A stretch of DNA of 64,000 nt from Podospora anserina. Lineage: Eukaryota. The translations under genes were made by a program, and so were the position numbers. Numbering within the stretch: the first letter of the stretch is position 1; each line of letters opens with the position of its first letter. The DNA is taken from NCBI GenBank assembly GCA_017654855.1, contig JAFMPO010000001.1, forward strand, positions 124,001 to 188,000. Direction: 5' to 3'. The notes beneath the pieces were generated by a model. That model did no database searches and was not told the DNA's origin. It worked only from the letters and a program-made list of their open reading frames with translations. Shown here in pieces: positions 248 through 43,763 of this stretch.

Positions 248-1585
248 GTTGTTTCGAGGGCGGTATTGTGTCAATTGAGAAAGTGAAGTGTGATGGTGCT
301 ACTACGGGTTTGGGGAAGGTTTTGTCAAAATAAGTCCTGGCAATTTTATGGATGCAGATTGGTTTCGGGTAAGCGTGGTGGCGTTTATTGCTCTGGTACA
401 TGAGAGAGGGGAGCTGACCTGTGCTAGTGGCCAGCTGAGTCTACATGTGATGCTACGACGCTAGTCGCTCAGTGCTTATCAAATAAGTCCCAATGCTGCT
501 ACGTTTACTGTTTCCGGAGACTGGTAGGTTGCTGAAGAGGTGTGATAGGAAAAAATAGGCTTAAAGGTTGCTTGTTGTGGTCATGCAAAAGCCACCTCAA
601 TGTAGCCAGTGAGCGAGTGGAGTGGTCGGATTCTTCTGTCCTGCCACTCGGGTAGCAAGAGGCCTGCTGCTCCTTTCTTCCCCCTACCCCTAAGATACTT
701 CAGATGGGGAGACACGTAAATCGCTGGGCCCACATACTCACCCACAGGGCTCGTGTTGTTGGACTTGGAAAATTCAGCCTTTGTTACGTTCCCTCCACAC
801 CACGCGACTTTCTCTTGGACCCGCACCACCATTGATATCAAAAAAGAAGTTATCCCAAGTGTCGTACCAAAAGGACGTCCTTGGTCATGGGGCCAAGGGA
901 AGGGGTATATCATCACCCCAAGTAAATTGCTTTACTCCGCATGGCTTCGGGACTAATCCAGCAGATTTAATTGCATTTATCATGGAACATACTCTCATGC
1001 TTGTTCAGTGTCACAGCCTAGTTTCGTCAGCGAGATGAAGGTTCTTGAGGCTTTTGATGCAGATGAAGCAACATTGGGTAATTACCTAATTGATTGGAGC
1101 CCGTGACCATCCTCGGAGCTGTCAAAGTCGCCATTCAACGGTTCAAATTAAGACTCGTTCAAACCCTGGAAGGGGAGAGATGTTCCTGTTTTTGACAGGT
1201 AACCAGAACCCTCATTATTGGAAAGGGGCTTTCAGATGGTTGAAGAGTGTCGAAGAGTGTTGGATTGTGTTGTGGGTGTTAATGCGGTGGACCGTGGTGT
1301 GATAATGTGTTATGGATTATAGAATAGTGGAAATTGCTTGATTGTAGTCAGATAGTGTTTGAGACAACAACGTTGTTCTGCTTTAATAGTTCTTGTCATT
1401 TTGTTGTGTTTGTGTTGGTGATGAAGTGGGGCAAGAAGTGTCTGGTTTGATCAACAGCTCATTGGCCGAAGTGACCCCGCCTCCAGGTAGGCAGTCACCC
1501 TATAAAAGGGAATTTGTCCTTTCCAGGAACCAAAGATGATGCAACCATTTTCATCTCGACATCACTGCTCACCTTACTTATTATA

Positions 1586-3687
1586 ATGTTCGAACGTCTC
1601 CCGGAGGAGCTGCTCCGAGAAGTGGCCAAAGGGTTTAACATTCAAGATGTCAAAACCCTCTCGCTCGTCTCCAAGACCTTCCATGCCATATGGGGACCGA
1701 GGTTTTGGAGCACATTATGTGTTAATACTGCTGGTCCAGGAGACCGCCCATCATCTGTCAGCATCAAACGGATCGAACAATGCGCCCATGCGCTTCAGAA
1801 TGCTACCTCCTCCATACAGAATGTCGCCGACATGGTGTTTCGACGGGACACTCGATGGAAGCTATGGGGCTATGAGAAGGAAGAAGACTGGCCCAACGTC
1901 GCCTGTTTCCACCGGCAGCCACCACCGGAGGACCTTGGGGTGTGGAGAGCTCTGCAACGAGCAGCGCCAGTCGCTGGATGGTCAAAAGATGAATGGTCCT
2001 TAAGGAATCAAAGGTGCGTCGAGGCAAGCATAGAACGAATGGGAAAGCAGCTGGGTCCCGACAACATGGACGACGTTGCTCTCGCTGTACAGTCTGTTCT
2101 CGAACGCATCCCCGCTGGCCAACTCCAATCTTTCACCTGGGACTTGGCAACATGCATTCCTCAGCCTATTTTGGATAGCCTCTTCCAAACGCAACCGCAG
2201 CTCCAGTCTATATCCTTGACGTCTGATACCCGTTGCAAGGCCATGACCAAAAACATCCACCTACCGTTCTGCCAGCTCAAACGGATTACTTGCAATACGA
2301 TACCACGATCTTATGTTCTACCGGTTCGAAGAATGCTTGAAAACAATAGAGGGCGCTTGCATGACCTCCAAATCGAGGAATTGCCGTACGGGGGCCTTTT
2401 CGAGGAGCTCTTATTTGGTCCAAAAGAATGTGAAGATTCCGCTGATCGGTGCCACAGTATGTTGGGAGCGAATCTTGATGTATTGTTTCCATCACTTGCA
2501 ATCCTGTCTTTGAGATCGGTCTATTTGACCAAGAGAATGGATCGAGCATTCAACATCAGTGGTCTAGATGCACTTACATTACGCCAATGTTCGCGATCGA
2601 GTGAATTCCTCGAAAGAATAATGGCAGCAAACAGACCCCTTCAGCTCAAGACCTTTGAGTTCATGTCTAGCCATGGGCACGATAATGATGACTATGACGT
2701 GGAGACGAATACAGTCAACACCTTTCTTCTATCATTCAACGGTCTAGAAAACCTCTATATCGGTTTTGCCAGAGATTTCGACGAAGACAGCGCTGGCTTC
2801 CACCCCCTCTGGTCTACCGTTGGCCATCACGGCTCAACACTGAAGAGGCTGGTGGTCCATCAGCGAGGCCTATGGACAGGTCCAATGTGCACAATGGGCG
2901 TCTTTGAGAGAAATGTCGATCCCATTCGTGACGTCGATGGCACGCTCGATATTTCAGAGACGAACATCAGCAAGTGGGCGCTGGATCCCGCCGAAAATCC
3001 CCTCTCAGCCCTTCCAAAACTTGAATGCCTCGGCCTACCTTGCGCTGTTTCAGACTGGAGCGAGTCCGATACGTGGGCGAGACATAGTATAGAACCAGGT
3101 GTGCGGTCCGAGCCTTTTATTGTATGTATCTTGCATTGCGGCTTGTACTGATAACTTCCTAACCGATCGTAAAAAACATCCAGATAACCCTCCTCAAGCC
3201 ATTTACCGGAGGCTCACGAAGCCTCAGGCTCCTCCATTTACGAAAAACAGGCTCAGGTTATGCATGGGCCTTCAAAGCGACCAGCCTCCCGCCTTATTCC
3301 AGGCGACGGCGGGCCGCGTCAACTCGGGCCCACGATGCTGAAGACGTTTTCCTCCTTCCCATCCCTCCTTCCGATATGTTATCATCCCTCCACCCACCTT
3401 TCTCCTGTTTTCTCAATTGGGCCTTCGGGCCAAAGGGCATTCACTCCCTCCAGGCCGTCGCTTTTGGGGATTTTGCAAACGGCCACATGGGCGGCAAATT
3501 CCTTCACAACATCTTTGCCATTCGTAACAAGGATGAGCTGCGAGGATACCAGGTGTTTGACTGTCGCGACAAAGCCCATGAGCACAAATGGCGGGCCATG
3601 GCGGATAGGTACGCTGACTTTCTGGAATCATGTCCCGTCGGGCCGCGGGTGGAAAGTTGGGGGGATGGGTCGAGGTATTATTTCTAA
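1586..3687 (+). CDS. F-box protein with LRR/RNI-like solenoid, 2 exons
   Basis: MFERLPEELLREVAKGF...LSLVSKTFH is an F-box pattern, followed by LxxLxL motifs. Intron 3123-3183 (GTATGT...CTAAC...CAG) joins exon 1 in frame to ITLLKPF...FLNWAFGPKGIHSLQAVAFGDF...YYF*. Confidence 0.8.
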
Positions 3688-3762: not shown

Positions 3763-5973
3763 TTATTCCAACTCTGCCCGATTCTCCTCTGTTCCTGTCC
3801 TGGCCTGGTACAGTGCCTCTAACCTTGCGGCAGCAGCTTGGGACGCATACTCTTGCTGTTTCGGGGGTGGGGTGGTGGCAGGGGCGTACCAACTCAGATA
3901 TGGTAGTGTTCTCACCTCCCTGGAAAAGGAAGGCGATTTGTGCGGGAGGATTCGTTGCAAAATCGGTATTTTTGGCTGTTGGGTTGGTAGATCAAGAAGA
4001 GGCCATGGCGCTGGCTGGGTGTATGGCGCCGGTCGTGTAGCCTCGTGGTCGGATTCCTCGCCTGTGGCTTGAGGGATCTGCGGGATTGCGGGTGGTGGTC
4101 TCGAGGGGGAGGGTGGTGGCCTCACTGGCGACGACGGAGGTATAACTGTTGCATCCAACCCTTCCTTTGCACCTGCGTCCTCCTGGCGCATGATTATCCG
4201 CATGACAGGCAGTTCTTTCAGGTTGTCCTGGCCGTCATTGAGCGAGCATGCCAAGTCAGTCAGATATGCCACGTGCTGATGCTCGGCATTTTCTGCGTCA
4301 ACGGCTGTGGTGAGAAGATCCAAGATGCGCTGACGCTGCTCAGTTGTGGTAGTTGAAGCAAAGGAGAAGCTGGACAGAGCGCCGAGGTTCGTAGCTCGCG
4401 CTCCGTGCCCAAGCAAGCTTGCAACAGCCTGGGAATGGCCTTCGAAAGCCGCGCGCCTCAGGGGATCCCAGCCTTGTGCATCAAGTTCATGTACAGACCC
4501 TCCGTGTTGGAGCAGCGCCTGGATCACTTGGACATGACCACCACTCGCTGCCAAATACATCGGTGTATCCGTTGTTCCCTTGACCCTGGCGCCACGGGTG
4601 AGTAGGTAACTCGCAATCTCTGCATGTCCGTTTTGGCATTGATGTCTGCCTCTCGGTCTAGGAGAGTCGCTATGACTTGGCAATGACCACTGGCAGCTGC
4701 CAGATGGAACGGGGAAAGCTTCCACTTGTCCTTGGACTGTACGTTGGCACCCTCTGCAATCAATCAACAACTCGACAATATCGTTGTGACCGCAGTGACA
4801 GGCGACGGAAAGAGGCGTTCTTCCGGTTCCTTTGTGCGGATGGTTGATGTCAGCCCTCTTGCGAATCAGCGAGGCTATTTCTTCCTGGTCGCCCCTTTGA
4901 TCCGCCACAATGGGCTTCGGTGGTGGATGATTACCGTTAGACTGGAGGTATATATCGGTAGCTTCGAACTCGCCAAGGAATCGATTACCCAACTGATACT
5001 TTGACGACATTGTCGCAGCTTGCTTGTTGGCGTTCGACCGTCTCAGTTGCCTCAAGCGTTGGCGGATGGGGGAAGATGGCGATTTGGGCAGAGACCCGTC
5101 CGAGACTGAACCGCTGGTGTTGGAACTCTTGTCGCTGACAGGAGACCTTGGCTCGGAAGATGGGCTGTCTGGTAGCATCTTAAAGGGCATTGGGCGTTCC
5201 CACGTGGGGTCTCGACAATCGTGATACTTGTTTTCATAACTGGGACTTGGTGGTCTGACGTGCATGTCGAACAGGGGAACAGTATCGGGACGGCTCTCCG
5301 CGAAACTGTCAATTCTGTCCAATCTCCCTAACGATGCTGGCGCCGGTTCGGAACCAGCAACCGTTGACAGTTCGGTATCTCGGAGGGTGGATTGTTCTCG
5401 AACTGTGCTCGTGTCATCGCGTATTCCTTGGAAAATCTGCCGGGCGGTCCCTGCTCGAAGGACCCTGTTTTGTTCCGTGAGACTCTGGCTGTGGGGAAGT
5501 GTCTGTCAGCTTGTGTAGGGACATGGCGCGCAACTCGAACTGCAAGACTTACCAATACGCTGCACTGAGAAGTACCTGCAACGCCGAAATCTGGGAATCC
5601 AGTCGTTGTTCGTGTTCCTTGATCTTCGAGTCGATAAACAACTGTTTCAGGCGCGACACAATTGTATTTTCGAGCAGTCCCGCCACATCTTGGTCCAGCG
5701 TTTCAATAAAGACCTGGCATCCTTCATGGCCACTCCCAAGCTGTCATGCATTTCCTCGCCATCGGGGCTTGTGGACGCGTATAACTCCGCCCAGTCCTTG
5801 ACTTGTGCCAGCGCGGCTCGTACTGTAGATAACTTTGCGATCAAAAGTTGTAGCGACCGTGCGCCCTCAGACCATCGCTGTTTGAGGGAATAGAGGTTGG
5901 TTGTGACCCGGGCGATGACTGTTACGATTTCACTGCAGGCTGCAACGGCGCCAATGATCGAGAGGGGCTCCAT
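3763..5973 (-). pseudogene. HeLo-like N-terminal domain + ankyrin-repeat protein, frameshifted
   Basis: N-terminus MEPLSIIGAVAACSEIV...LKQRWSEGARSLQLLIAKLSTVRAAL resembles the fungal HeLo-like/STAND N-terminal type. Ankyrin motifs: GRTPLSVACHCGH, SPFHLAAASGH, TPMYLAASGGH, DPLRRAAFEGH. Frameshifts near 5725 (ATG-AAG where ATG-GAA-GGA continues the protein) and at about 4760 and 4635. Confidence 0.75.
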
Positions 5974-6507: not shown

Positions 6508-7239
6508 CTACTCTAACTCGACCGGCAAACACCCGTCGCTCCGTTCCCCTCTTTCACAACCCGATGGACAATCCCCCCCGGCAAACTGCCACCCAAACAA
6601 CACCTTACTCTCCTCACTTCCCACCCCCCCAAGCACCACCTCCGGGTCCTGATCCCTCATCCCGACTCCACTCCCAATAACCTCCTCACTCCCTATATCC
6701 AACTGTCCCCATCCCAGCTCAATCAACTCTTTGATAGACACCCCATAAACATACTCCCTAAACCCCGCCCACCTCACAGCAGCAGCGCACATGGGGCAGC
6801 TTTCGGCGTTGGTGTACAAGCTCAGGTCCTTGAACGCGGCTAGCGACTCCGCTGGTGTCATATTATAAGCCGAGGAGACAAAGATTGAGGAGCAGTTGTT
6901 TATTGCTGCCATCTCCCCGTGAAGAGTCGGGTTGCCGGCCAGGGAATTCTGGTTTGCGCCAGTGCAGATGAGGGTTCCTTGGGGGTTGTCGAGGGTGTGG
7001 TTCACGATGACGGTGCCAAAGGCTGCGAAGGGGCAGGGGTAGGGGAAGAGGGCGAGGGTGTTGGCTTGGTGGATCCAGTGTTTACGGACTGAGAGGGGGA
7101 TTTTTGGGGAGGTAGTGTGATATTTTGGGGGCTTATTACGAGGTACCGGTGAGATGCTCGGGGAGTCGGCTGGGGAGTGGGTGCATGATGTGGTTAGTGA
7201 GATCACAAGGGGTAATGAGGCTATTGAGAAGCTCTTCAT
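6508..7239 (-). CDS. Cytidine/deoxycytidylate (guanine-deaminase-like) Zn deaminase with a predicted signal peptide
   Basis: Zn motifs PTLHGEMAAI and LYTNAESCPMC, also PFAAFGTVIV; hydrophobic N-terminus. Confidence 0.85.
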   Translation of the reverse strand: MKSFSIASLPLVISLTTSCTHSPADSPSISPVPRNKPPKYHTTSPKIPLSVRKHWIHQANTLALFPYPCPFAAFGTVIVNHTLDNPQGTLICTGANQNSLAGNPTLHGEMAAINNCSSIFVSSAYNMTPAESLAAFKDLSLYTNAESCPMCAAAVRWAGFREYVYGVSIKELIELGWGQLDIGSEEVIGSGVGMRDQDPEVVLGGVGSEESKVLFGWQFAGGDCPSGCERGERSDGCLPVELE

Positions 7240-7579
7240 ATTGGGTTGTTTGTGAATTGGAGGGATGGAGGATGAGATAGCTTTGTCGATGATGAGTTGT
7301 GGTTACCTATGAGAATTGAAGGTTGGAATGCTGACATCATCGGTCGGAATTGGCCATGATTCGTTGGCGGCCACATATCTCATACCGCAACCACACTGAA
7401 ACTAGTAGTGAGCGAAGATTCGCGAGAAGACGGTCGTCTCTATGTTCTATTATGAAGATAGTCGTTCCTGTGCTCTAGTATGAAGATAAATAATTATGTA
7501 CCCAATTTGGGTGCCAGAAGATTTTACCACTGCTCAATGACGTCCACACCCTGTCCTGTCTTCCAGTTAAAAGTCCCTA

Positions 7580-8616
7580 TCATTGCCCCTGGTTCAAAAC
7601 CGCTGGCTTCGTAGGCGGAGTACCCTGTGGACTTTCCATCTCTGTTGGGCCAGTCTCAGGACCAGGAGCTTCCACCCTGCCATATGTATCCCACCGAGCA
7701 CCACTCAATTCGGCCGGCGCCTGCGTATGTCCCAGTTCCTACGCCGTGACTTGGGGTTCCTTCATGCCCGGGTGCCACTGTTACTCGGGCTGACCGGAAT
7801 AGTAATGTTTCTCGCCAGGCGGCCCGGAGGCAGGGTATCCGGGTGGAGGTGTTCCTGCCTCAGTGGCAGGTAGTTCAGCTTGTGCGTAGGGTCCGTCCCG
7901 GGCTAATCCACGGCGCTTCGTCCGCCAAAGCAAAAAGGCGCCCACCACGATGCCAATTATCACTGCAGCAGCACCAACCGCAATACCCGCTATCGCTCCA
8001 GTCGAGATCCCGCCGCTGGAAGGCTCCTTAGGGGTTGATGTGGTGGTCGGTCCCAGGTCTGAGGAAATGTCTGATGAGGGAAGGTCTGAGGGCTTCCACG
8101 CGAGCTGGATCATTGGCGCGTAGATATACGCCTGAGACCAGTTCTGGTAGGGGAGAGTCATCGGAGCGAGATTGATCTGGGTTCCGCTCTCGCACTGATA
8201 TGTTGAAATGGTGGTGGCGCGAGCAATCGAGATGCAGGTTTGGCCGTTCTCGTTGTGGCAGGCGTAGCCCTCGGGACAGTAGCCTATAAAGGGTTCTTCC
8301 GGTTCCATCCTGTACTGCACGCGCCAACCCTGCGAGGTGGCGCTGGCGGTGCATGCCGATTGATAGCCCGCTGGGCACTCGAGGCCGGCGAGTAGAATCC
8401 CCAGCCGTAGAAGGCCGAGTTCGTTCTCGGAGCGCCTATTGTCGTCGGGGGCTAACAGTCGGCGTTATCTTAAACGTCCGTCGGCCCGCATGTCTGTCCT
8501 AACCAGCCCACGTTGAGCTTAATATGATGGGCTGGTGTCCAGCATGCTTCCGGAGCTGTGAAGGTTGTAGTGAGATCACCGAGGATCTTTCTGGCTTGGT
8601 TAGTCAAGATTGACAT
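7580..8616 (-). pseudogene. Single-pass membrane protein (Cys/Thr-rich ectodomain, GAIAGIAVG TM helix), with premature stops
   Basis: Reads LTTTFTAPEAC...DV*DNADC*PPTT...GFYSP(frameshift)LECPAGY...IYAPMIQLAWKPSDL...GAIAGIAVGAAAVIIGIVVGAFLLWR...PE*QW...TA*EL. The stops sit where Q (CAA/CAG) or W (TGG) would fit. Confidence 0.7.
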
Positions 8617-13599: not shown

Positions 13600-13985
13600 A
13601 AACGCTAGCTGAGTCTGGATAACGGCCTTTTAAATCAGGGATAACATGGCTCATAGGTCGGATTACGATGCTCTTAAAGACTACGCGTTGAGGTTGTGGT
13701 AATACTCTGGAGTTAGGATAACAGCTGTTTTTAAGAAGGTAGGAGTAAAGCCCTGTGAAGTTGAGTTAATGTGGACACCTCAGCTGAGATAATGCGATAT
13801 GAAGCTCGGATAAGGTGATATAAAACTGGAGCAAAAGTATTCTAAAGTTGAGATAACTAGGTAATATCTTAGCTGAGAAAATGCCCTTTAGGCTGGGATA
13901 ATATATAGCTTAAGCTGGGGTAAAGCATGCCTGATGCTGAGATAGTGTCCGCTTGATGCTAGGATGAAGCTCAGAAGAAGAGAAA
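13600..13985 (+). repeat. Degenerate ~21-nt periodic array (core AGCTGRGATAA)
   Basis: Units agctgagataatgc, agctcggataagg, agttgagataact, agctgagaaaatg, ggctgggataat, agctggggtaaag and tgctgagatagt at roughly 21-26 nt spacing. Confidence 0.55.
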
Positions 13986-13999
13986 AGAACTCCAAACGG

Positions 14000-16405
14000 C
14001 TAGTACATGTAAACCCCACCCGGGAATGCCCTTCCTCCCCTAGCCCGAACCAGCGCGGATGCATCCACCCTCTCCCGCGCCGTTGTGCCACGGGCCAGCG
14101 CTTGATTCCGGCCGTCAGTCGTGAAGAGAATCTTGGACACCCGACTCGAGTCCTGCATGTGCTCACGCAAGAGTTTAATGAAATTCAAAAGGTGCCCCAT
14201 GCTCTCCCTGTCCCCTGCAAACTGCAGCCCATCAATGACCCAACTGATCACAGGGGGTGTGTACACAAGCAGCGCCTTGATGATGTTTAACGCCGTGGGA
14301 AGGCTGTGCAAGGTCCCGTCAAGCTTCGCGAATTGGTCACCGTGGAGGCTCTTGCCTGCTGTGAAGCCTTCTCTGGGAAGCACCCAGGCAAGTTGGCGGA
14401 TGGTGGAGCAGAAGAGGGATACGACTGCCGCGTCTCTGTGGGATAATGTCGGCTTGCTGGCACTGCTCCCGCTCCTGCCACTGCCACTGCCAGCGAAGCT
14501 GTATCGGGACCTGCAAAAGTACGAAATGCAAGGAATACCGGCGTTCATGACTCCATCGGCAGCTTCGATGGCGGCTTTAGAAAGCACAGAACTACCCGGG
14601 GAGGATGGGCCTTCCACCCACATCATTCGGGAGCCAGAGTCAGATATCCAGTTGCTGAGTTGGGTGTACACTTCTTGCGGGATCATGGTTGTTTGTGGGT
14701 GGGACTCGGCTCTCAGGAACTCTTCGGCACTCTCGATGTAGGGCCTGAGGGCTTCGGTGTATTGTTGGATTCGCCAATAGTCGGGCATTGTGGGTTCTGC
14801 TGGCCACGATTAGGTTAGTCAAGTTCTGAGCGTGTGCATGTGGTCCAAGGGAGGATATCACCGCTGGTTATTATGTCCTTTGAAGGGTTCGTCGATTGTC
14901 CTTCGCTGGGAAGTCTCGCCATGGCGTGGGATTTCGGCATTTCTGGCTCGTTTGCTGGCTCGTCAACTGTTAAGGCGGGCGGGACGTTTGAGGATTGCTG
15001 TGGGGATTGGAAAGTAACGTCTGTAAGGTTGAAACTCGTTGGTTAACTGCAGAAGCAAAAGAGAACCACGCGCAGCATTATATAGCTACACAGGTGGAAG
15101 TCGGGAGAGGCAATGGAGGCGGCAACTCAAGAGTGAGCTGACACTCTGTGACGGTGATTCATGCCCCGCGGCACATTCGAGGCCTCGTGGCCTTTTTATG
15201 GGTTTAGGATGATAGAAAATCGCCAACTTACCGTGAGTGACTTGGTCCTCGACACCTTCAAGCTGATGTACAGCTTTCTCTCCCAATCTCTGAAGCCCAA
15301 CTGCTGCCGCGGCAAGTTTCACGTTGACCTGCTGCTCGGTGTCCGCGTGAGTCTGAACTCCAAGTTGTTGCAGCCTGACCAAAAGTGGTTCCATGTCGTT
15401 CATTTTTTGGTGCATGTGCTCGATACGCAGCTCAGTCGTATGTTGTGCCTCGTTGCGGATGTCGCCGATCGTCTTTTGGATGCCGTCGACCATGGCCTTG
15501 ACCGTCTTATCATAGAATCCTTTGTTGAATGACGCCAGAAATCTCTTGTGGCGTTTGTGGAAGAAGGACATGGCGTGGCAGAGGAACTTGAACACTTGGA
15601 CGTATAGCGCCACAACAAGCCTTTGCATTTCATTTGTGTTCGCAACTTGTGTTTTCTTCTGCACAAATGTCAGGTTCTCACTCATTTCCACAAGGGCAAG
15701 TGAGAATCCCTCAGCAATCTTCTGGTAATTGACCGAGGCCTGCAATAAGTTGCACCATTAGTAAAAGCGATGACAGGCATGGGCAGGGGTAATGCTCTCA
15801 AACCTTGACGACGGATGCCACAACCCCAGTGAGGAGGCTGATGTACTTGTCCTCGGCCGGAACAAACTTGAACAAGAATGAATGATCATCCATTGTCTCC
15901 ATGAAGCGGAGAAGCCGATTTCTGGCGAGGCCAACGCCAGACTCATGCTTGGCCTCCCAACCAAGACGGGCGTCATTGACTGCCGCTTGCAAAGTTGCAA
16001 TGCTGGGAAGTGGCGAGTGAGCGGCCCCGGATGTTAATTCTCCTGGAGGGACGAAGAGCCTTTGAAACTCCTGCCAAACTCGAATCAACTCTTTGCGCTG
16101 TTGCTCTAGCGGATCGAAAATTGGATCACTGTTAGCCGTAGTCAGTTCATGCAGACGTGTAGACACACGGATGGGCCGTTGGCATATCCCTATGTTGTAA
16201 CATACCTAGAGCAGTCACTTTGGAGCCAATAAACCCACTCCTGAGCTTTAACACGTTGAATACTCGGTCGATGGCCTGCCTGTTGAACTGTGGAACCGAG
16301 TGCTTGAGAGAGAGGGTCTTCTGGGTTTTCTTTTTCGACTTTGAGACTGTAGGAACGAACTGCTGGTGTGATGGGTGTTGGATCCTCCTCTCTGATATCG
16401 TTCAT
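14000..16405 (-). CDS. Goodbye-like N-terminal domain + degenerate NACHT-like domain, no C-terminal repeats; multi-exon (middle exons uncertain)
   Basis: FMETMDDHSFLFKFVPAEDKYISLLTGVVASVVK|ASVNYQKIAEGFSLAL...LYVQVFKFLCHAM is Goodbye-like. Later: LSNWISDSGSRMMWVEGP (Walker A position lacking GKT), ISYFC, LFCSTIRQL, WVIDGLQ, KILFTTDG. GT-AG introns at about 16205-16129, 15803-15741 and from 15231. Confidence 0.7.
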
Positions 16406-16454
16406 GGCTAGGTGAGTTGTGAGGGTGAGTTTTGAGAGGTGGATCACGATAAAA

Positions 16455-16690
16455 GCCGAGATAATGGATATTAGAAGTTGGGGTAGAGTATCAAAAGAGT
16501 TGGGATAAGCTCTTGAAAAAGCTGGGGCATATATGAAATAAGATTGGATAAAGTGTTAGAAAGCTGGAGTAGAGTTTTAAAAAGTTTAGATAAACAGAAG
16601 CTAGGATGGAGGGTAAAAATGCTTGGACAAAGTGTTAAAAAACCGGGGCTAAGTCTTAAAAAGTATGGATGGAGTGTTAAAGCAGCGGTA
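16455..16690 (+). repeat. Degenerate 21-nt tandem array (consensus ~AAGCTGGGATAAAGTGTTAAA) in the divergent promoter
   Basis: Units aagctggggcatatatgaaat / aagattggataaagtgttaga / aagctggagtagagttttaaa / aagctaggatggagggtaaaa / atgcttggacaaagtgttaaa / aaaccggggctaagtcttaaa / aagtatggatggagtgttaaa. Confidence 0.65.
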
Positions 16691-16943
16691 TAAGTACTAT
16701 AAGGAGAAAAGGCAGAGCCGCACGGCCACCCACAAGGAATTAAGTGTGCACAAATTTTCCAACCAACCAATTGGCCAGTGATTTCAGGCAGCACTGTGGC
16801 GCAGGCGCCAACTGCGACTCCTTGGGGTAACATGAAGTTCGGGGGTGAGGGGTAACTTTTCTGGGGGGACTCGAGGGAATAGCGATTTTATCCCCACCCA
16901 TTTTCTTTCGCCACCATGTATCTCCGGGAGTGTCGTCAATGAT

Positions 16944-19900
16944 ATGTCTGGTAGTTCCGGTTATCAATCTTTAGGTTACTCGAAAGATTTCCCTATGGCT
17001 TCTTTGCAACCCCCCTCCAGCACATCGGTGGAGCAACCGGTCCCGCCGAAGGATTGTGGACTGTCCACAGGCAAAACAACAACGCCAGAAGCCATTCACG
17101 AGCCTTATTTGGATGATCTGGGCGACAAGCCTCCGCCGCCGGGCGCCGTAGAAGACGGCAAGACACCCAACGGCCAAACAGAGAAAGCCACCCCCGAGAC
17201 ATCGAAGCCCGGCGCTGAAACATGGAGCTCACCGGTGCCCTTGTATTGCACAGTCAACGGACGAAGCCATAGCATATTAACGGACTTTGGGTTAAATATA
17301 TGTCCTCGTTGTGATATAAATCTCTTGGAGACACCGCGCCGAGGTGTAACGGATGATCAAGCAGGGCCTGCCGAGAGCGCTGACGGTAGCGCTGACGAGA
17401 GCGCCGACGAGAGAGACGATGGTTTGACAGACAAGGATTACAACCCGGCATGCAATTGCCCTCATTGCAATGGATTCCGTCTTCGCAAACGTTTCGAGCA
17501 CGTCCCGCTTCGTCAGCAGGAAACGGGCGAAGAACATAACCAGCAACCAATGGTGGCATACTCGGTGGAATATATCGACCGCGAGGAAGGACATATCGGC
17601 ATACGTCCCTGGCCGACGACGTTTGACCTCGATGTCGCCCGGCAGGGTGTCTTGAAGTACAAAGCCTCAGTCTTTAGCGTGGTAACTGTGCTGAAGACCT
17701 CCCATGCGCCCGAGGTCTTTCGTTACATCTCAGACGACCTCAGGCGTGACAGGGTGTCTCGCATGATGGAAGATCCCGGCGTCACAGTGAACGTGCACGC
17801 AACAAAAATTGTAGTTGGGTCGCAGGCTCTCCTAAAAGCTCTCCGAATGGTAGTGCGTTACTACCCCCAACTCGATCTTGAAGGCAGGTCTTTGGAGTTG
17901 GATGAGCCTTACGCGGTCATCGGTCATCATTTGGAAGAGCTCGAGAGCCTTCGTGGGGATATAGGGGCTGAGAAGCACGCGCCAGATTCCATTCCGAGAG
18001 TCGCGTCAGAACCTGGGGCGGATGATGATGAGGACTTGAACGCAAAGGCAGGAGAGCATCTTGGATTGCTCCTCGACTATCTCCACGCCAACGTTTACAA
18101 GGACAGGATACCAGCTGAACGCAGCCTGCACCAGCGAAATCTTTGCACCTTCGAGATGCTGTGGCTCTTGTTCAAGCCCGGCACCACTGTTTACGTGGAA
18201 TTTCGAGGTAACCTTGCGGCTCATGTGGTCCAATCGGTGGTGTCTGATGCCGCTATTCTTTCCGACCCGAAACAACGACTCACGCCATACAAGATCAGGT
18301 TGTGGTCGCTGACATATGACGGGCGGTTTGTTGGCCGAAGCTCAACGGAGGTGGTTCTTCCTCCATTTGGCGGGGAGCGTGCAATCACATCCTTGAAGGT
18401 CTTTCCGTGCGAGTATTTCGATATGAGCGACGGCGGGAAAACCAAAAGGCGGTTAGAGGAGAATGGTAAAAAATGGTACAACCTTTTGCTTGGGAAACAA
18501 GTACGTTACCGGGGTGAGCTGTTCGATAAAGGCTCCTTAGAAGCCAGAGACAGCCTCAGGATGAGGGAGAGGATCGGCCCAAATCCCTCAAAGGGCCCGA
18601 ATCGCGAACAGTTACCGCCACCACCACCACCGCCGCCGTGGATTCCCCCGCCCATGGATCCGTTTATGCGAGGGGCTTCACGAGAAGTTACAAGACAAGG
18701 GCCGGTATGTGACTTATTGACTTCGCTTCTTCCTAGCCTCGTTAGATCCAATGCTAATTTAAATTAATCCGCAAACTATCTAGCTTGATGGCAGGGTCTA
18801 CATAGACTCTGCGGCTTATTACACTCAATGGCCTGGGGCGGCACCGGAAATTTGCAATACTAACGACATTGGACAGAACTTGGCTATGTGTGGCTGTGAA
18901 GAATGGTAAGCCTACCCTACATAGGTACCTACTAGGTACCTTTCTGGTTCAACGTTGACAGAATAATGTATCTGACATGGCTTAAAACAGTTACGGGAGA
19001 AGACCCCATCCTCCGCCGAACTTTCCTTATGCGTCCTATGACTTGTTGGATCCCACCCGCGTGAAGGATCTCAATCTCGGACCTGGAGATCACGATCCCA
19101 ACCACAGATACTTGCTCTGCGACTCGCTTCTGTACGGTATCGTGCTGAAGTCCAGAACCTGGGGTATGTGGTCCAATGATGCTGAGAAGCTCTTGTACAT
19201 CTCGTTAACTTGTATCAAATCACTCCAGAGGCTTTTGACGTGGCCCGCTGCTTCGAGCCGAATATCAACCCGGGTGCTATCGATACATTGGTGATGCCAG
19301 CTCCCCGGAAACAGATGATCAAGGCCCTGGTGCAGAAATTTACCGACCCAAAAGACAGTTTAGCTACGTCCTGGCGCGCCGACTTCATCGAAAACAAGGG
19401 GGAGGGTCAGATATTCCTACTTCATGGTGGCCCCGGCGTTGGGAAGACATATGTAAGTTGGGCCTCAGTTCATTTCCGAGAGCTCACGAATAACAAGCAA
19501 TGTCTTGTATCAGACCGCAGAATGTATTGCCGAATACACGAATCGTCCACTGCTCTCCCTCACCTGTGGCGATATCGGCATCAACGAAATCAGAATGGAG
19601 CAGCAGCTCTCAAAGTGGTTCAGACTTGCTGAAAAATGGGGGGCTGTCATGCTGATTGACGAGGCCGACGTTTATCTCGAGCGACGCGTTGTTAGTGATC
19701 TTGAACGCAATAGTCTTGTGTCGGGTATGCTCCATTTGCAATTTTATTTCACAATGCATCATGCTTTGATGGCGACATCGATGATAAAGCTAACAGAATT
19801 CTCGGAAAGTCTTCCTTCGTTGCATCGAATACTACAGGGGCATCTTGTTCTTGACCACCAATCGTGTAGGGCATTTTGATGATGCCTTCATTTCCAGAAT

Positions 19901-20380
19901 TCACGTTGTCATCAAGTATGATCCTCTCAGCGAAGACAACCGCCGCCAAATCTGGACACAGTTCTTCGACAAACTCACCGACGAGCGTCAGGATTTCATC
20001 ATCACTGGGCGTGCCAAACAGTACGTTTTGGAGGATGATATCATTAAAAAGCTCGAATGGAATGGCCGTGAAATCCGGAATGGTAAGTCCAGTTGATCCA
20101 GTTCACTGGCAACGTCATCGACAGGTGCTAACAAGACTTTCAATGAACAGCTTTCCAAACGGCAGTGGCCCTGGCGGAATTCCGTTTCCTACAGAAAGGT
20201 GACAAGTCCAAGCATGAAGGCCCAACCCTGGACCAGAAAGACTTTGAGCAGGTGTGCGACATGACAAGGCAGTTCAAGGAGTATCTTCATGATCTCCACG
20301 GGCTCGATGAGGAGGGCAGGGCCTACAATGCCAGAGCGAGGGCAGGCAACCAGGACTGGGTAAGGAGTACCGCGAAGTAA
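16944..20380 (+). CDS. Fungal AAA+ ATPase with a long N-terminal region, multi-exon
   Basis: CTFEMLWLLFKPG and WSLTYDGRFVG (conserved N-terminal block of this family); Walker A LLHGGPGVGKTY|TAE; Walker B MLIDEADVYL; FLTTNRVGHFDDAFISRIH; WNGREIRN. Several GT-AG introns. Start codon uncertain. Confidence 0.88.
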
Positions 20381-31235: not shown

Positions 31236-33249
31236 TGTGACGAACCCCTATCCAGAACCTCTAAAAGGGATACTGGTTGAAGGCACTTCTGAACAATCCT
31301 GGTTCGGTGCAGCTAAACAGTGCACAACAAGATGTCTCGATGTAAACACAAGATACCGTGAATACAAGCTGTGATTGCATACTGCGGAACTATCTACAAG
31401 CTATCTAGTTCCTCCGTATATATAGACCTTCCTTAGTAGTACTCATCATGCTCGGTCCCTGAGCAGGCCGAGCACACTGCTTCGTCGCTCAGTCCCCTGA
31501 GCGCACTGAGCGCCTCTGCCTCGCTGCTCAGTGCCCCGAGCACACTGAGCAGCCGTTCTTCCTCGTGATTGGCTCCCTGTCCTTATTCCCGATTGGATTT
31601 TGTTTCCTATGGCCCCACAGCCCTTTATAACCAATCGTAATTCTCGTCCTTGTACCAGGACTGTGACACGATGCTCCCCCCCTCAGGCCGACGTCCCGAC
31701 GGCCTAGCTTTACTTCTTCTTTCAACGACAACCTTCCCAGGTAAGTCTTTTTCCCTCTTTTCACTATCCTCCAACTATATCTAACCGCGTTAAGAAACCT
31801 ACGCCGAAAGGCCTTTCCAGCACCCTTCGTCGTCAGAATCTTGCAGTCGCCATTGACTTATTTGGTGACGAAATGCTTCCCTGTACTTCCTGCGAAACCC
31901 TTAACCTTACCGATTGCCGCGTTCTTGACCGTTCCTCCAAATGCAATCATTGTCTTCGTGCTAGTCGTCCCGACTGCGATGTCCTGGGTCTCACTCCCGC
32001 CCTAACGGCCTCCCTTCGTCGCCAAAAGGAGAAATTGGATGCCGAAGAGCAAGAGGCTCGCGCAACCATGTTACAGGCGGCGTCGAAACTTACTCGGGTA
32101 GATACCCAGCGTCGTACCTTATCCGCCAAGTTTCGTCGCATCGCAGCCCGCGAGCAGCGGTTGATTGAGGACTTGGAGCGGGAAGAGGCGCAAGCCGCTT
32201 CTTCCGCTAACCCCTCCTTGGTCCCTTCCTTCGACTGGACCTCCGCGTCGAACTGGCTAGATCCAAACCTCCCAATTGATCCGTCCCTCGACCTCCAGTC
32301 TGCCTTTGGCCCTCTTCCTGGCTCGACGGCCGGTTCTCCCCGGAGTTCCCCTCCTTTAGCCGTCCAGGGTTCCTCCGATGGAACTCCTTCAGCTTCTCAG
32401 GGCAACTAAGGTTCGTGACTGGCTCCCAAGAGTTATCCGTGGCTGGGTAGCCTAGCCAGCTAACCAAATATTCCAGTTGTCCGTCATTAATGCGAGAGTC
32501 TAGTACTTCTTCCACGTCGTATTCCTCTTTCTCGTCCTCGGCTTTTACTTGTGTGTCTGGGCTGGCCGCCCGTGGTGCCGGTTCTAAGAGCGAGATGTGG
32601 AAAGTGTGTGACCTTAGACGTATCGTACTGGGTAGCTCCAATTCGAATGCCGTCTCTGAGATCTTCCTTTTGACCTTGAATGGGCCCACTCTCCTGTGGT
32701 CCAGCTTTTTGCTAGGTCTCTTGGTGCGTAAATTGCGTGTGGAAAGGAATACTATGTCTCCCCCCCTAAGGCGAGGTCCTTCGAGCCTTTTGGTATTATA
32801 GTATTTCCGTATCCTTTCCCTTACAAACTCCAGTTCTTGCTTAAGCTTACCGTAGAGTATATGTAGCTTGTCTGCCTTGACCCCAGCCCTGGGTACCTTA
32901 ACGCTGAGTCCTTGCCGTAGGTCTGCCTTATATCTAAAGTTTACGAAGAACGGCGTGGCTTTAGTCGTCTCTATTAGTAATATATCATATATTAATTGTG
33001 CCGTAGGCAATAGTTCAACCCAATTATCCTGCTCGAAATTAATGCAATTCCGTAGGTACTATTTTACGATTGAGTTAAGCCATTCCGTTTAACCGTTTAT
33101 CTAAGGGTAGTAAGCCGAAGACGCCTTACTTACTACCCTTAGCCTCGTTATTAACGCTCTCTAAAACTTCGATACGAATTTAGTATTACGGTCTATAATA
33201 AACTCCTTTAGCTATATATATATTACTATAATATAGCGTAGTACTATAT
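31236..33249 (-). mobile_element. 3' part of a chromovirus-type Ty3/gypsy element: family-A 3' LTR (31236-31668), PPT, integrase C-terminus + chromodomain
   Basis: The LTR is closely preceded on the minus strand by purine-rich GAGGGGGGAG. The ORF has KKLDHRRVGPFKV, TFHISLLEP (GPY/F) and EYDVEEVLDSR...EYLVSWLGYPATDNSWEP (chromo). RIP-mutated toward 33249. Confidence 0.9.
31777..32409 (+). CDS. Antisense accessory ORF of the retroelement (Cys6-like cluster + coiled coil)
   Basis: CTSC...C...KCNHC...C followed by heptad-like LRRQKEKLDAEEQEA. The frame is open from ATA 31777 (possibly a RIP-mutated ATG); the first real ATG is 31873. Confidence 0.6.
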   Translation: MSNRVKKPTPKGLSSTLRRQNLAVAIDLFGDEMLPCTSCETLNLTDCRVLDRSSKCNHCLRASRPDCDVLGLTPALTASLRRQKEKLDAEEQEARATMLQAASKLTRVDTQRRTLSAKFRRIAAREQRLIEDLEREEAQAASSANPSLVPSFDWTSASNWLDPNLPIDPSLDLQSAFGPLPGSTAGSPRSSPPLAVQGSSDGTPSASQGN

Positions 33250-39153: not shown

Positions 39154-42100
39154 ATGCCTTCTGTCAATCTCAGCCAGGCCATGCATTTGATCGGATGGAC
39201 CACTGCTCTTTGTCTCTTAGCTGGTGCGATTGCCTCTGGCCTGTGGTTCTATCCCATATTCGCGCGTTCCAAGCCCGCACCGTCGTCTCAGACCGGGGAC
39301 AGCTCAGGCCCCGCACGATCCACGCGACAAGACGTCCGCCTCTGTCAAGTTAACCCTGACAAGAACGAGACAGACACCGACATCGATATCATTGCCATTC
39401 ATGGCCTCGACACAAAGTCGCCGGACACGTGGACATGGGTAGACCCCAACGATCCCAACAATACCGTTAACTGGCTGGCCGACCCGCGAATGCTCCCGAG
39501 TCAAGTGGAAGCAGCTCGCATCTTCACATGCGACTGGCCTGCCGATCTGCTTCAGCCGTCAGACTTGGTCCAGAAGACGGACGACGAGATCGCTTTGCTC
39601 CTATTCGAAGGAATCAAGAGAGATCTCTTGGGAACGCATGATAAAAAGAAAGTAGACCGGCCGATTCTCTTCATCGCTTCCTGCCTTGGGAAAATCATCT
39701 TGGCAAAGGCTCTGGTGGGCGCCGATCATAAACGCAGCAGCTATTATAGTCTGAGGACAGCAACATGTGGGATTATCTTCCTCGCCACCCCGTTTGGAGG
39801 GACTTCGTTCGAAGACGTAGCTATCTGGGCAGATCCAGGTCTGACCGCATGGGCTCTGATCCGTCGCCGAGAAGTGAGTAACCTGCTCGGCTGGGTGAAG
39901 GGATCGACCTTCGCTCTTAAGGTACTAGTTCGGAGGTTCACGCGGCTATGTCAAGATAATCACAACCCCTGCCATGTATTCTGCTTTTACGAACTTGGAA
40001 AAACGAATCTCTGGCGCAAGGTATTTCCTTAGCTACCAGCCTCACTCCCTGGATGGAAGCAGGTAAGAACCGCGACGTACCTTCGTCCCAGAGCTACGAC
40101 TAACGATTCCCAGCTGGTCGACATGAGGTCAGCAATCCTTCAAATCGTCTTTAAACCGCTGCCGCTTGATCGAACCCACCGCCTAATGAATAAATTCGAC
40201 GGCCCTAAATGTCCGGACTACAAACAAGTCTCTGGAAAGATTCTAAAGTTTCTCACGAAGATATATAATGGAACCCCCCTCGCACAGGCGGACGCCAGGA
40301 TTCGCAATGTGCACTATTCGCTGGAACGGCTCAAAATTGAACGACTGTCGGGCGACCTACTACCGATGGGCAGATACTAGATCAATCTGGCCATTGTCGA
40401 GTGGCCTGGCGATAATGCAACTCGCGGAGGAAAAGGAGACACAGCACAACAGTCTTCCCCGTTTTCGCTCCTCGCCCGACTAAATGTGGAGACACCGGAC
40501 AAGACGATCGAGGTCACGCTGCCGACGCTATTTGAGCCCCGCAAGTCACAGGACGGCCAGAAGAAACAGCCAAGTCGTATCCTGATCCGTGGACGGGCAG
40601 GAATAGGTAAGACTACTCTATACAAAAAGATTATCTATAATTTTATATATAACAACCTATAGCAGGGCTTATTCAATCGCGTACTTTAGGTACCACTGCG
40701 GAACCTAAAGGTAGAAAAGAGATAGAGTGCCGGATATAACTTCCGGGATTTGTTTTACCATGAGTATTTCTCTCAAGATCTCGAAGGCCGCGAGCTCTCC
40801 GATGCATTGTGGCGCGTCTTGAAGGACACCAAGAGCGGCAGGACTTTGTTCATCCTCGACGGTTTCGATGAAGTGTCACATGGCCTAGGCGGCGACATGT
40901 CTGTCTTCTTCGAAGAGCTCTTGAATCAGCCAAATGTCATCATCACTGCCCGGCCCAACGCACGGCTTCCTCCTCGGCTAGATCCTCTCGACCTCGAGTT
41001 GGAAACCATTGGATTCTACCCGGACCAAATCACGGCCTACATTGAAAACACCTTTACCGATCGAGAAACGAGCGAACGCGATTTGGAAAAGATCAAAGAG
41101 GTTCAATCGTTTCTGCAACGCCATCCGCTCATGCAAGGTCTAATGCGTATCCCGATCCAGCTAGATGCGTTTTGCTATACCTGGAATGGTTTTCCTCGGG
41201 CAGGTGTGCCGGAGACCATGACAGCTGTCTACAAAGCTATCGAGGAGAGTCTGTGGAAAAAAGATATCTTGAAGCTACAGAAAAAGAAGGATGGTGAGCC
41301 TGTAACGGGAGACCAGATTAAGAAGGCTAGCCGGAAAAAGATTGAAAGCTTCGTGGAGCAGGAGCTCAGATTCCTTGAGTGCCTTGCCTTTTTGGGGTTC
41401 TATGACGACGTGATAGACTTCGATTGGGAACTTCGAAACGCTGTTTCTGATAGATTTGCATCAGATCTCCTACTCGACAAAGATCTGCCTTGTCTCTCAT
41501 TCCTACGAACGTCGGACCCTTCATCAAACGACCAAGATCGAAATTACCACTTCTTACACCTCACGTTTCAAGAGTATTTTGCAGCACGGTATTTCATTCG
41601 ACAGTGGAAAGATAAACAACAGCTCAATTATCTGCAACTCAGCCGTGACAATTGTAACAATATGGAACCTGCCACTTTCCTTAAGAAGTATAAATACGAT
41701 CCTCGCTACGATATCTTCTGGCGCTTTGTCGCAGGATTACTCGATGCCGATGACATGGCCCTCGACTTCTTCCAGATGATTGAGAAGGAACCACGCGATC
41801 TCCTAGGACCTACGCACCAACGCCTTATCATACATTGCCTAAGCGAAGTTGAGCGGAAGGAGTCGAATTTCACGGGACTTCGAGCGAGGCTAGAAAACCA
41901 ACTAGAACAGTGGCTACTGTTTGAATCCGATTCTACGGGGAATTCCGAACTAGTCCATGAAATGGAGTGTCCGGGGCAGGTCCTGTCCAATGTATTAACG
42001 CAAGCATCTGAAGGCGCAAGAACGGTTCTTCTCGAATCACTATCTAGACGAACAGCAGTGCCGTTCAGTGTTATAAAAGTCGTATCTCCCTGGCTGACCA

Positions 42101-42900
42101 ACCGCACCTCTGCACACCAATGTGCTGCTATCTTGCGTATGTTAGGAAACCAGCATAATAACTTACCGGACAAGATCCACCAAAGCATCGCAGCACGGCT
42201 CGAGGATGAGGACTGGGGCGTCCGGGAGGCAGCAATGGGGGCGCTTGGAGGCCGCGCCGACCTCCCCGACTAGGTGCTCCAAAGCATCGCAGCACGGCTC
42301 GAGGATGAGGACCGGGGCGTCCGGGGGGCAGCAATCGACGCGCTTGGAGGCCGCGCCGACCTCCCCGACTAGGTGCTCCAAAGCATCGCAGCACGGCTCG
42401 AGGATGAGGACCAGAGCGTCCGGGGGGCAGCAATGGGGGCGCTTGGAGGCCGCGCCGACCTCCCCGACCAGGTGCTCCAAAGCATCGCAGCACGGCTCGA
42501 GGATGAGGACCAGGGCGTCCGGGAGGCAGCAATCTGGGCGCTTGGAGGCCGCGCCGACCTCCCCGACCAGGTGCTCCAAAGCATCGCAGCACGGCTCGAG
42601 CATGAGGACCAGGGCGTCCGGGAGGCAGCAATCTGGGCGCTTCGACGCCGCGCCGACCTCCCCGACTAGGTGCTCCAAAGCATCGCAGCACGGCTCGAGG
42701 ATGAGGACTAGGGCGTCCGGGGGGCAGCAATGGGGGCGCTTCTATATTAATCAGTATTACCGTTATATATCCTCATCCTATATATCCGATCCTTTTACGA
42801 CGCTTTACTCCAGAAAAGCTTCAGGGAGCATTTATACTAGTACGCTTCGGAAAGTAGTTTTATAGGGACTAATCTTGGACATATTTCTTTAACCGGCGAG
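39154..42900 (+). pseudogene. NLR: SesB-like alpha/beta hydrolase - NACHT - HEAT repeats; RIP-inactivated
   Basis: IDIIAIHGL, RPILFIASCLG, GIIFLATPFGG (hydrolase); intron 40063-40113; ILIRGRAGIGKTTL (Walker A), LFILDGFDEV (Walker B), IPIQLDAFC, YHFLHLTFQEYFAA; 33-aa HEAT-like repeats. TAG stops at about 40030, 40378, 40660, 40687, 40723 and within the repeats. Confidence 0.9.
42181..42741 (+). repeat. 99-bp tandem HEAT-coding repeat, about 5.7 near-identical copies
   Basis: Units start at 42181, 42280, 42379, 42478, 42577 and 42676; consensus QSIAARLEDEDxGVRxAAxxALGGRADLPDQVL. Confidence 0.95.
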
Positions 42901-43412
42901 CAACATAACGTAAAGGAGGCAGTAAGGAAGCTACTATTAGAGAAGGGCACTGCCAACGTAAATGATGGACGTAGACGGCTGCCGTCACACTTAGCTGCTG
43001 AGAACTGGGAGGAACCGGTGGTATAGTTATTACGGCCGAGGCTATAAAACAACTTATTCGTTCTACGTTCATATTCGCACTTTTCTCCTTCCAGTTTTTT
43101 TTATCTTTAAACATAGCGTGCCACCAGAAGGGTCCGGGAGAACGTGTGAATATATACTTGTTTGTGAGTTCTAGCATCTTCCAGATATTTATTTCTCACA
43201 AAATAATAACTCACTTGCTACTGACCTCATTCTACATTGAGCGTCAACTCTCGTCACGTTATCATCATGCGAAGAGAACTATTGTGCCGCCTTTGGAGGG
43301 CTCCTCCGGACTGGCTCATTGTATCACACTCTTACCGCTCCGCCGCATGCTGATAATGTGTAGGCTACAACTCACGACCCCACAGCCGATCATGATCTGC
43401 ACGTGGACCCAC

Positions 43413-43763
43413 TGTCACGGCGGTTGGCTTGCGTCAGCATCAGACGACAACACCATCAAGATCTGGGATGCGGCAACGGGGTCATGTACCCAGACGCTTG
43501 AGGGACATCGCCATTCCGTCTGGTCGGTAGCGTCTTCCCTCAACTCGAAGGTGATTGCATCCAAGTCAGATGATGCCAACCCCCCACATTATCAAGGCTA
43601 TGGGATAGACTTGAGCCAAAGATGGATTACGAGGGGCTCAGAAAACTGGCTATGGCTGCCTCTGGAATATCAGTCAAGGCGTTCAGCTGTAGCGGCATCA
43701 ACAGTTGCTAATGGCTGTTCTTCGGGACGCGTCCTAACTATCACGTTCACGACAGACAGCTAA
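43413..43763 (+). pseudogene. 3' fragment of an HNWD/NWD-type WD40 NLR gene
   Basis: WLASASDDNTIKIWDAATGSCTQTLEGH..SVWSV closely resembles HET-E/HNWD repeats. It is followed by the typical tail GYGID...WITRGSENWLWLPLEY...GCSSGRVL. Confidence 0.8.

Follow-up and report, generated by a model that had tools for sequence, protein, structure and literature searches.

The 64,000-nucleotide stretch of Podospora anserina DNA analysed here (contig JAFMPO010000001.1, positions 124,001 to 188,000; referred to in full as the window, with positions counted from its first letter) belongs to chromosome 1 and carries at 14000-20380 two genes that point away from each other. The minus-strand gene, hereafter the partner gene (14000-16405), consists of five exons (16405-16206, 16128-15804, 15739-15232, 15020-14862 and 14796-14000) encoding a protein of 662 amino acids (aa). 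Its four introns are all of the GT-AG type and the spliced open reading frame (ORF) is complete. The plus-strand gene (16944-20380; exons 16944-18704, 18784-18905, 18991-19163, 19229-19452, 19514-19724, 19810-20082 and 20151-20380) encodes an AAA+ ATPase of 997 aa; its first exon is 100% identical to PODANS_1_21540. A spacer common to both genes (16406-16943) separates the two ATG codons by 538 bp. An earlier note made from the sequence alone had described a divergent pair across about 540 bp, which this distance bears out, and spliced contigs carry the joints of all exons of the minus-strand gene, the middle ones included.

Both genes are expressed and spliced as modelled at all 10 introns. 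The contigs come from four runs that were taken as RNA by guess; they lack the introns, and the parts they skip have canonical intron ends. All four partner introns appear as joints in the contigs of the four runs, as do all six introns of the AAA+ gene, the runs stemming from four studies. The contigs place the acceptor of partner intron 4 3 nt beyond the position in the sequence-only model, yielding the 662-aa product. The database protein P0205 (662 aa) is 100% identical to this product across 662 residues, and QC761_0024440 of P. bellae-mahoneyi (662 aa) is 97.6% identical. The AAA+ product is 98.1% identical to a 993-aa protein of P. comata and 97.8% identical to a 1012-aa protein of P. 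bellae-mahoneyi. In the spacer, contigs of the minus-strand gene reach 16646-16681 and those of the AAA+ gene begin at 16875-16917, leaving at most about 230 bp uncovered, although contigs cannot fix the true transcript ends. The reference annotation of the locus is incomplete. PODANS_1_21540 stops in intron 1 (16944-18767, 607 aa) and lacks the AAA domain. The partner appears there as two short gene products, of which PODANS_1_21520 (291 aa) is the C-terminal piece. Full-length models exist in P. bellae-mahoneyi for both proteins (662 and 1012 aa) and in P. comata for the AAA+ protein (993 aa). An 18-nt motif, GGATAARGTGTTARAAAR, occurs seven times at up to three mismatches where 0.37 occurrences are expected; four copies in the same orientation bracket the minus-strand gene, three of them within its 5′ leader (16503-16642) and one shortly beyond the 3′ end (13808-13825). 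The motif could mark the edge of a duplication or serve as a repeat with a regulatory role.

The partner protein is built from a helical N-terminal part with a DUF7708 domain, a disordered linker and a 265-aa nucleotide-binding fold of the STAND type, and it carries no repeats. In the AlphaFold2 model of the full protein, whose predicted template-modelling score (pTM) is 0.46, residues 14-348 are helical (predicted local distance difference test score, pLDDT, mostly 60-88), residues 347-398 are disordered and a compact alpha/beta domain follows. Fold searches with this full-length model are filled by matches to the C-domain. DUF7708 (PF24809) spans intron 2 (15431-15866, minus strand; aa 155-278) and scores 52.5 bits on the full protein (E 6.1e-14), above the curated cut-off of 25; the exon alone gives 8.6e-12. 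The Goodbye-like N-terminus proposed in the earlier note has a divided outcome. Pfam reports DUF7708 here, with no match to Goodbye (PF17109) in the partner at E≤0.05 or in 28 family members at E≤0.01. When DUF7708 clusters are excluded, 28 of the 30 closest look-alikes of the N-part in a language model are Goodbye-bearing clusters (top score 0.91), a resemblance to be taken as a lead only.

The C-terminal pseudo-nucleoside triphosphatase (pseudo-NTPase) domain (14003-14795, minus strand) comprises just the nucleotide-binding fold, after which come a conserved tail and the stop codon. Modelled alone with AlphaFold2 it reaches a pLDDT of 91.3 and a pTM of 0.90, and it is predicted to be a nucleotide-binding fold of the STAND/ORC type. 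In VIA-align the highest Z score is obtained with Avs3 (11.6, over 185 aa with a root-mean-square deviation of 3.6), followed by Cdc6 (11.0), ZAR1 (10.9) and NRC2 (9.7), with Apaf-1 (9.1), CED-4 (9.1) and the STAND structure 6mfv (9.0) below them; Cdc6/ORC proteins at 10-11 are tied with STAND proteins. No NACHT-specific structure is among the 50 matches listed. Foldseek with the C-domain returned only generic P-loop matches at template-modelling scores of 0.3-0.4, and searching solved structures with the sequences of the C-domain family gave nothing meaningful. The strongest profile match of the C-domain is to the N-terminal part of NACHT, and the Pfam NPHP3_N match in the full protein is partial (profile positions 11-61 of 164); apart from it and DUF7708, Pfam reports no domain in the partner.

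The catalytic motifs of this fold are degenerate. The P-loop position, GPSSPGSSVLS as read from the sequence (14579-14611, minus strand), runs from 14611 to 14579 as WVEGPSSPGSSVLSK without GK[ST]. The Walker-B-like strand WVIDGLQFAGD (14210-14242, minus strand; alignment consensus VIDGLQxxE) departs from the NACHT motif hhhhD[GAS]hDE (Leipe et al. 2004, as quoted in the available part of 10.1101/2024.11.26.625400): the Asp and the small residue are kept, whereas DE is replaced by QF. A sensor-1-like strand, KILFTTDG, is present, and the protein ends about 40 residues later in a conserved tail. Neither the model nor Pfam gives helical or winged-helix subdomains after the nucleotide-binding domain, Pfam finds no C-terminal repeat family such as WD40, ANK, TPR or HEAT, and the stop codon (14002-14000) lies within spliced contigs. 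Since it lacks the Walker A lysine, these subdomains and repeats, the partner is probably not a self-sufficient nucleotide switch. [quoted passage not shown]

The plus-strand product, judged by its sequence, fits the fungal DUF7025-AAA+ family as an ordinary member. Exon-wise Pfam searches match DUF7025, AAA and AAA_lid_13 in the window gene, and all of these domains are above cut-off on a 98%-identical ortholog (DUF7025, PF22942, 81.9 bits; AAA, PF00004, 58.6 bits; AAA_lid_13, PF23232, 121.6 bits). DUF7025 (18120-18419, plus strand; E 2.3e-23) lies in an N-region of about 700 aa that also carries two Cys-rich motifs kept among 15 relatives. The Walker motifs are intact, as had been noted from the sequence: Walker A (GPGVGKT, 19429-19449) is invariant in 15/15 aligned relatives, and in Walker B (MLIDEAD, 19649-19669) D-E-A-D is invariant among the 15. 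The sensor-1/Arg region (LFLTTNR...SR) and the fungal AAA+ lid follow at 19812-20377 (AAA_lid_13 E 2.2e-35 on the ortholog, with exon matches), the TTN of sensor 1 and the arginines again being invariant in the 15 relatives. The solved sequences nearest to the AAA core are VCP-like ATPases (E 1.4e-8) and Msp1 (E 3.2e-6), which places the enzyme in the classical AAA+ clade.

Relatives of the partner are numerous. A phmmer search of 1.84 billion representatives retrieved 548 clusters at E≤1e-3 and 175 clusters at E≤1e-10, with named members in Sordariales, Xylariales, Hypocreales, Diaporthales and Eurotiales. Members are typically 600-700 aa long, and hundreds of clusters from different orders share this architecture. 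Of 28 members compared with Pfam, 27 have DUF7708, and the protein ends soon after the C-domain in 33 of 34 aligned database relatives, the exception (P0043) having a long extension. GK[ST] is absent from the P-loop position in all 35 aligned sequences (the partner and 34 relatives), and none of 14 partner ORFs from metagenomes has a P-loop; loss of the P-loop is therefore supported as a family trait, not damage to a single copy, and the partner would be a pseudo-NTPase of the STAND type, as the earlier note proposed. Some atlas clusters combine DUF7708 with NPHP3_N/NACHT. The window itself holds a second DUF7708 gene 30 kb from the pair (45666-47008, plus strand) with an NPHP3_N/NACHT body (66.6 bits); its P-loop stretch is split between the ORFs 45931-46383 and 46427-47011, indicating an intron or a break. 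Three paralogs have near-identical N-parts, so that the divergence among paralogs lies in the C-domains. Between the partner and the chromosome-5 paralog Pa_5_10570, identity is 84% in the N-part and 70% in the C-domain. P0001 of P. pseudocomata (QC762_0022010) is 97% identical to partner residues 146-283 and then about 55-65% identical to the end, a mosaic that, on sequence grounds, paralogy or gene conversion would explain equally well. Balancing selection at the partner locus was considered from this mosaic and set aside, as the two P. anserina haplotypes differ by only 8 single-nucleotide polymorphisms (SNPs) and 1 indel in 6.5 kb.

The partner family accompanies the AAA+ family in other fungi. 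Consecutive GenBank accessions, read as neighbouring genes by inference from submission numbering, pair partner and AAA+ protein in Triangularia verruculosa (KAK4195604 and KAK4195605, with a further C-domain fragment, KAK4195603), Apiosordaria backusii (KAK0716573 and KAK0716572), Chaetomium sp. (KAH6630496 and KAH6630497), P. bellae-mahoneyi (KAK4649738 and KAK4649739) and P. comata (partner VBB73792 and VBB73793, AAA+ VBB73794). Three Xylariales have both genes on one contig: Biscogniauxia marginata (605,813 bp; JGI 372746 for the partner and 372745 for the AAA+ protein), Nemania abortiva (167,975 bp; 284376 and 284378) and Hypomontagnella monticulosa (150,068 bp; 292774 and 285993), the JGI identifiers being 1 or 2 apart in two of the three. 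The two genes are thus neighbours or on the same contig in 6/6 non-Podospora species from which both proteins were retrieved. A second, paralogous pair, a DUF7708 protein of 356 aa beside a DUF7025 protein of 431 aa, is adjacent in three Podospora species.

A metagenome scan seeded with an alignment of the AAA+ family measures the association from AAA+ gene to partner and not the reverse. It produced 80 AAA+ loci in 70 groups at 90% DNA identity, and in 34 of these groups the sequence reaches 3 kb or more upstream of where the AAA+ gene is estimated to start. Among these 34, 12 match the N- or C-domain profile of the partner and 8 match both. With a broader C-domain profile the loci L042 (E 1.6e-4) and L044 (E 1.7e-4) join them, in a search of 14,936 ORFs whose next hit is noise at 0.19, for a total of 14/34. 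Every match lies upstream of the AAA+ gene on the opposite strand, head to head, and none occurs elsewhere in 901,468 bp of sequence. The metagenome partners form two subfamilies, and no third gene recurs beside these AAA+ loci. At L042 the gene head to head with the AAA+ gene carries a Pfam HeLo domain (E 3e-6) in place of DUF7708, while the C-terminal half of its product matches the family profile across nearly the whole domain (E 1.6e-4). At another locus, L003, a HET-domain gene (6603-8489, minus strand; E 4e-32) stands head to head with a close relative of the AAA+ gene, possibly by chance; it has no match to the partner C-domain.

That the pair constitutes a two-gene module, conserved among filamentous ascomycetes and transcribed divergently, is well supported: it is expressed, adjacent or on one contig in the six non-Podospora species and head to head at the 14 metagenome loci. 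Comparison of the sequences also supports the view that the head-to-head arrangement has been retained far beyond what neutral synteny would be expected to leave. An undescribed two-gene unit, as the earlier note had it, remains an apt description: no published account of the pair was found under DUF7708, DUF7025, Pa_1_21520/30/40 or AAA+/HeLo/NLR combinations (NLR, NOD-like receptor), and the available portions of three NLR surveys, with supplementary tables outside that coverage, make no mention of the pair.

The two genes also diverge congruently, another property that had been raised for the pair. The identity matrices of partner and AAA+ protein show identical groupings: the second Podospora pair clusters with A. 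backusii and T. verruculosa in both, Chaetomium lies outside both groups, and the window pair clusters with the unlinked chromosome-5 copies Pa_5_10570 and Pa_5_310. In a Mantel test of partner against AAA+ protein, r is 0.84 (p 8e-4) with 9 pairs and 0.62 (p 2e-4) with 13 pairs. Such co-divergence fits duplication and inheritance as a pair, as far as identity values can tell. In P. anserina the partner gene exists in two forms. Contigs of three runs from three studies carry a +1 insertion behind position 15323 (minus strand) together with the same 8 SNPs, and the fourth run matches the window. The insertion shifts the frame at residue 314 and leads to a stop after residue 335, and database products of 335 and 262 aa fit the frameshifted partner.

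The proposed novelty is that a protein with an NLR-type head, whose nucleotide-binding domain is dead, is coupled to an AAA+ ATPase encoded in trans. The partner would be an NLR-derived protein with a dead nucleotide-binding fold behind a helical DUF7708 (Goodbye-like) head, and the AAA+ protein may supply in trans the energy-dependent step that the partner has lost. To do so it could bind the dead nucleotide-binding domain or the conserved C-terminal tail, set the assembly state of the partner and hence the activity of the N-terminal effector-type domain. A mechanism of this kind, in which the ATPase acts on a nucleotide-blind STAND-like protein and so controls an effector-type head, is put forward tentatively; it is a plausible reading that may well prove wrong. 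What we infer here is the binding, whether control activates or restrains, and what the pair does biologically. A complex prediction with the C-domain (aa 396-662) and the N-region of the AAA+ protein (aa 215-700), run without alignments, scored 0.23 against a mark of 0.34, a value that weighs on neither side. The likely setting would be regulated cell death or immunity. This idea is suggested by the N-domain family, one HeLo-bearing partner, the patchy distribution and pseudogenisation; like NLR genes, the family has a patchy distribution, many paralogs and a tendency to decay, properties that such genes show in general in Podospora (PMC13449251, in the part available). A broader version would make the pair a "split NLR", one of a widespread class of ascomycete cell-death or immune modules in which the NLR engine has moved to a separate classical AAA+ protein. 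All that the partner would keep is an effector-type head that can be exchanged, either DUF7708/Goodbye-like or HeLo, together with a docking domain blind to nucleotides, and the DUF7025 N-region would sense signals. As a whole this extension is speculative and somewhat unlikely.

Several observations weigh against an obligate partnership with a role in cell death. At 20 of the 34 metagenome loci the AAA+ gene has no partner and its neighbours are mostly unrelated ordinary genes; the five loci nearest to the window AAA+ protein by N-region score are all among those without a partner. For HeLo there is one locus, to be taken as a single lead, and when the family is compared with L042 by hhalign the probability is 8% (E 0.004). 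Plain co-inheritance in related organisms would be expected to give co-divergence too. In the second P. anserina haplotype the partner is broken and the AAA+ gene intact, and for the second Podospora pair the annotation gives short products only (356 and 431 aa); the frameshift together with these short products indicates that the module is dispensable. Finally, in one HMMER sequence alignment the pore-loop KWYG of Msp1 faces GTDEV in the AAA+ protein. The absence of an aromatic residue in this alignment would argue against a textbook threading unfoldase, and the enzyme may thread substrates otherwise than usual.

The same observations bear on other explanations. The AAA+ protein may be a housekeeping or stress machine with the partner as its adaptor or regulatory subunit and no role in immunity or cell death. 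p97 and Vps4 have such adaptor or regulatory subunits and degenerate NTPase folds are often structural subunits, so that conserved pairing, co-divergence and the presence of both genes in the contigs of all four runs would be in keeping with this explanation. It is nevertheless unlikely, as it sits badly with a patchy, paralog-rich distribution, a frameshifted haplotype and short second copies, as well as with the occurrence of the N-domain family on true NLRs (45666-47008 in the window and the atlas clusters) and with the HeLo variant. That variant is among the points for a version in which the AAA+ protein restrains or guards the partner, perhaps by taking N-domain assemblies apart or pulling them out, such that loss or inhibition of the ATPase would free a cell-death activity in the manner of a toxin and antidote or a guarded hub. 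The kinship with VCP-like ATPases and the extractase Msp1 agrees with this, the constant head-to-head layout would allow co-regulation, and a frameshift in the partner rather than in the AAA+ gene is what would be expected if the partner is the risky member. An AAA+ gene that often occurs without this partner and a pore loop with no aromatic residue in the alignment speak against restraint, and it must be considered quite improbable.

Two further explanations dispense with joint action. Neighbours that share a bidirectional promoter and are inherited jointly could have products that do not act on each other. Linkage alone can yield co-divergence, and the other neighbours at 20/34 AAA+ loci point the same way. 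Mere neighbourhood does not readily explain why two divergent partner subfamilies, two Sordariomycetes orders and one paralogous pair all show the same orientation and order, or why all partner-family matches in 901 kb of flanking sequence adjoin an AAA+ gene; there is a small chance that it is correct. The partner could also be a truncated, decaying NLR pseudogene that lies beside an AAA+ gene by chance. It has neither P-loop nor repeats, its annotation is split, one haplotype is frameshifted, and another NLR of the window is riddled with stop codons. This view is already contradicted by the complete spliced ORF in the window haplotype, by the 600-700-aa architecture in hundreds of clusters across orders and by the high-confidence fold of the C-domain, and is scarcely credible.

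The proposed control of a nucleotide-blind protein by a separate ATPase can be set beside several known systems. Fungal NLRs with DUF7708/Goodbye-like domains share with the partner the N-terminal family and the kind of nucleotide-binding fold. In contrast to them, the partner has no Walker A lysine, no Walker-B DE, no helical/winged-helix subdomains and no repeats, is about 600-700 aa long and is paired with a classical AAA+ gene. Since it fails these four defining features it is not filed as an NLR, though NLR-derived. The head-to-head NLR pairs of plants, RGA5/RGA4 and RRS1/RPS4, comprise a sensor and a helper, and the P-loop of one member is dispensable or degenerate. The likeness is in logic only, a divergent pair whose other member is a working ATPase: both plant proteins are NLRs, whereas the active member here is a classical-clade AAA+ protein with DUF7025 and not a STAND protein. 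Head-to-head NLR pairs are rare in Sordariales, according to the part of Bonometti et al. (bioRxiv 10.1101/2024.11.26.625400) that was available. Msp1/ATAD1 and the VCP-like AAA+ proteins have the Walker A/B motifs, sensor 1 and Arg residues in common with the AAA+ protein described here, which adds the N-region of about 700 aa (DUF7025 and Cys motifs) and the fungal-specific lid PF23232, and has no counterpart of the pore-loop-1 aromatic of Msp1 in the HMMER alignment. In the NWD2/HET-S cluster of Podospora an NLR lies next to a HeLo effector (PMC4344463, in the part available). As is proposed here, neighbouring genes of one species share out a cell-death pathway, one encoding an NTPase protein and the other a protein with an effector domain. 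NWD2 is a complete NLR and signals through an amyloid motif, whereas in the pair described here the effector-type domain is on the NTPase-dead protein and the other gene encodes an AAA+ ATPase.

To our knowledge, no function has been assigned to most fungal NLR-type genes, and surveys include a protein only if its NACHT or NB-ARC domain is recognisable. The partner family fails such filters, having no P-loop and only a partial profile match, yet it is large, carries NLR-type heads and keeps company with one particular AAA+ family in different orders of Sordariomycetes. Should its members act together with that ATPase, the pair would represent a new wiring of an NLR-like death or signalling domain to an ATPase, and would provide a first functional handle on DUF7708 and DUF7025. 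P. anserina is a tractable model, not a pathogen, in which one haplotype has an intact partner gene and another a broken one.

The window as a whole is an NLR-rich stretch. At 40726-42780 (plus strand) a NACHT/NLRC4_HD2 ORF precedes 5.7 copies of a repeat of 99 nt (94% matches), which reads as 33-aa HEAT-like units (QSIAARLEDEDQGVREAAIGALGGRADLPDQVL). In-frame TAG stops stand where other units have CAG, so that this NLR, with highly conserved repeats, appears to have been pseudogenised by C-to-T changes. Directly downstream of the NACHT gene lies an ORF with WD40 matches (43002-43760, plus strand). A retrotransposon remnant with Tf2-type SH3 and chromo domains (32210-33058, minus strand) and a long AT-rich stretch with abundant short tandem repeats of AT (57700-63500), together with the NLR genes, indicate that the window is a fast-evolving region. 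Upstream of the pair are an F-box ORF (1475-3148, plus strand), an ankyrin-repeat ORF (3766-5505, minus strand) and a cytidine/dCMP deaminase-like ORF (6511-7302, minus strand).

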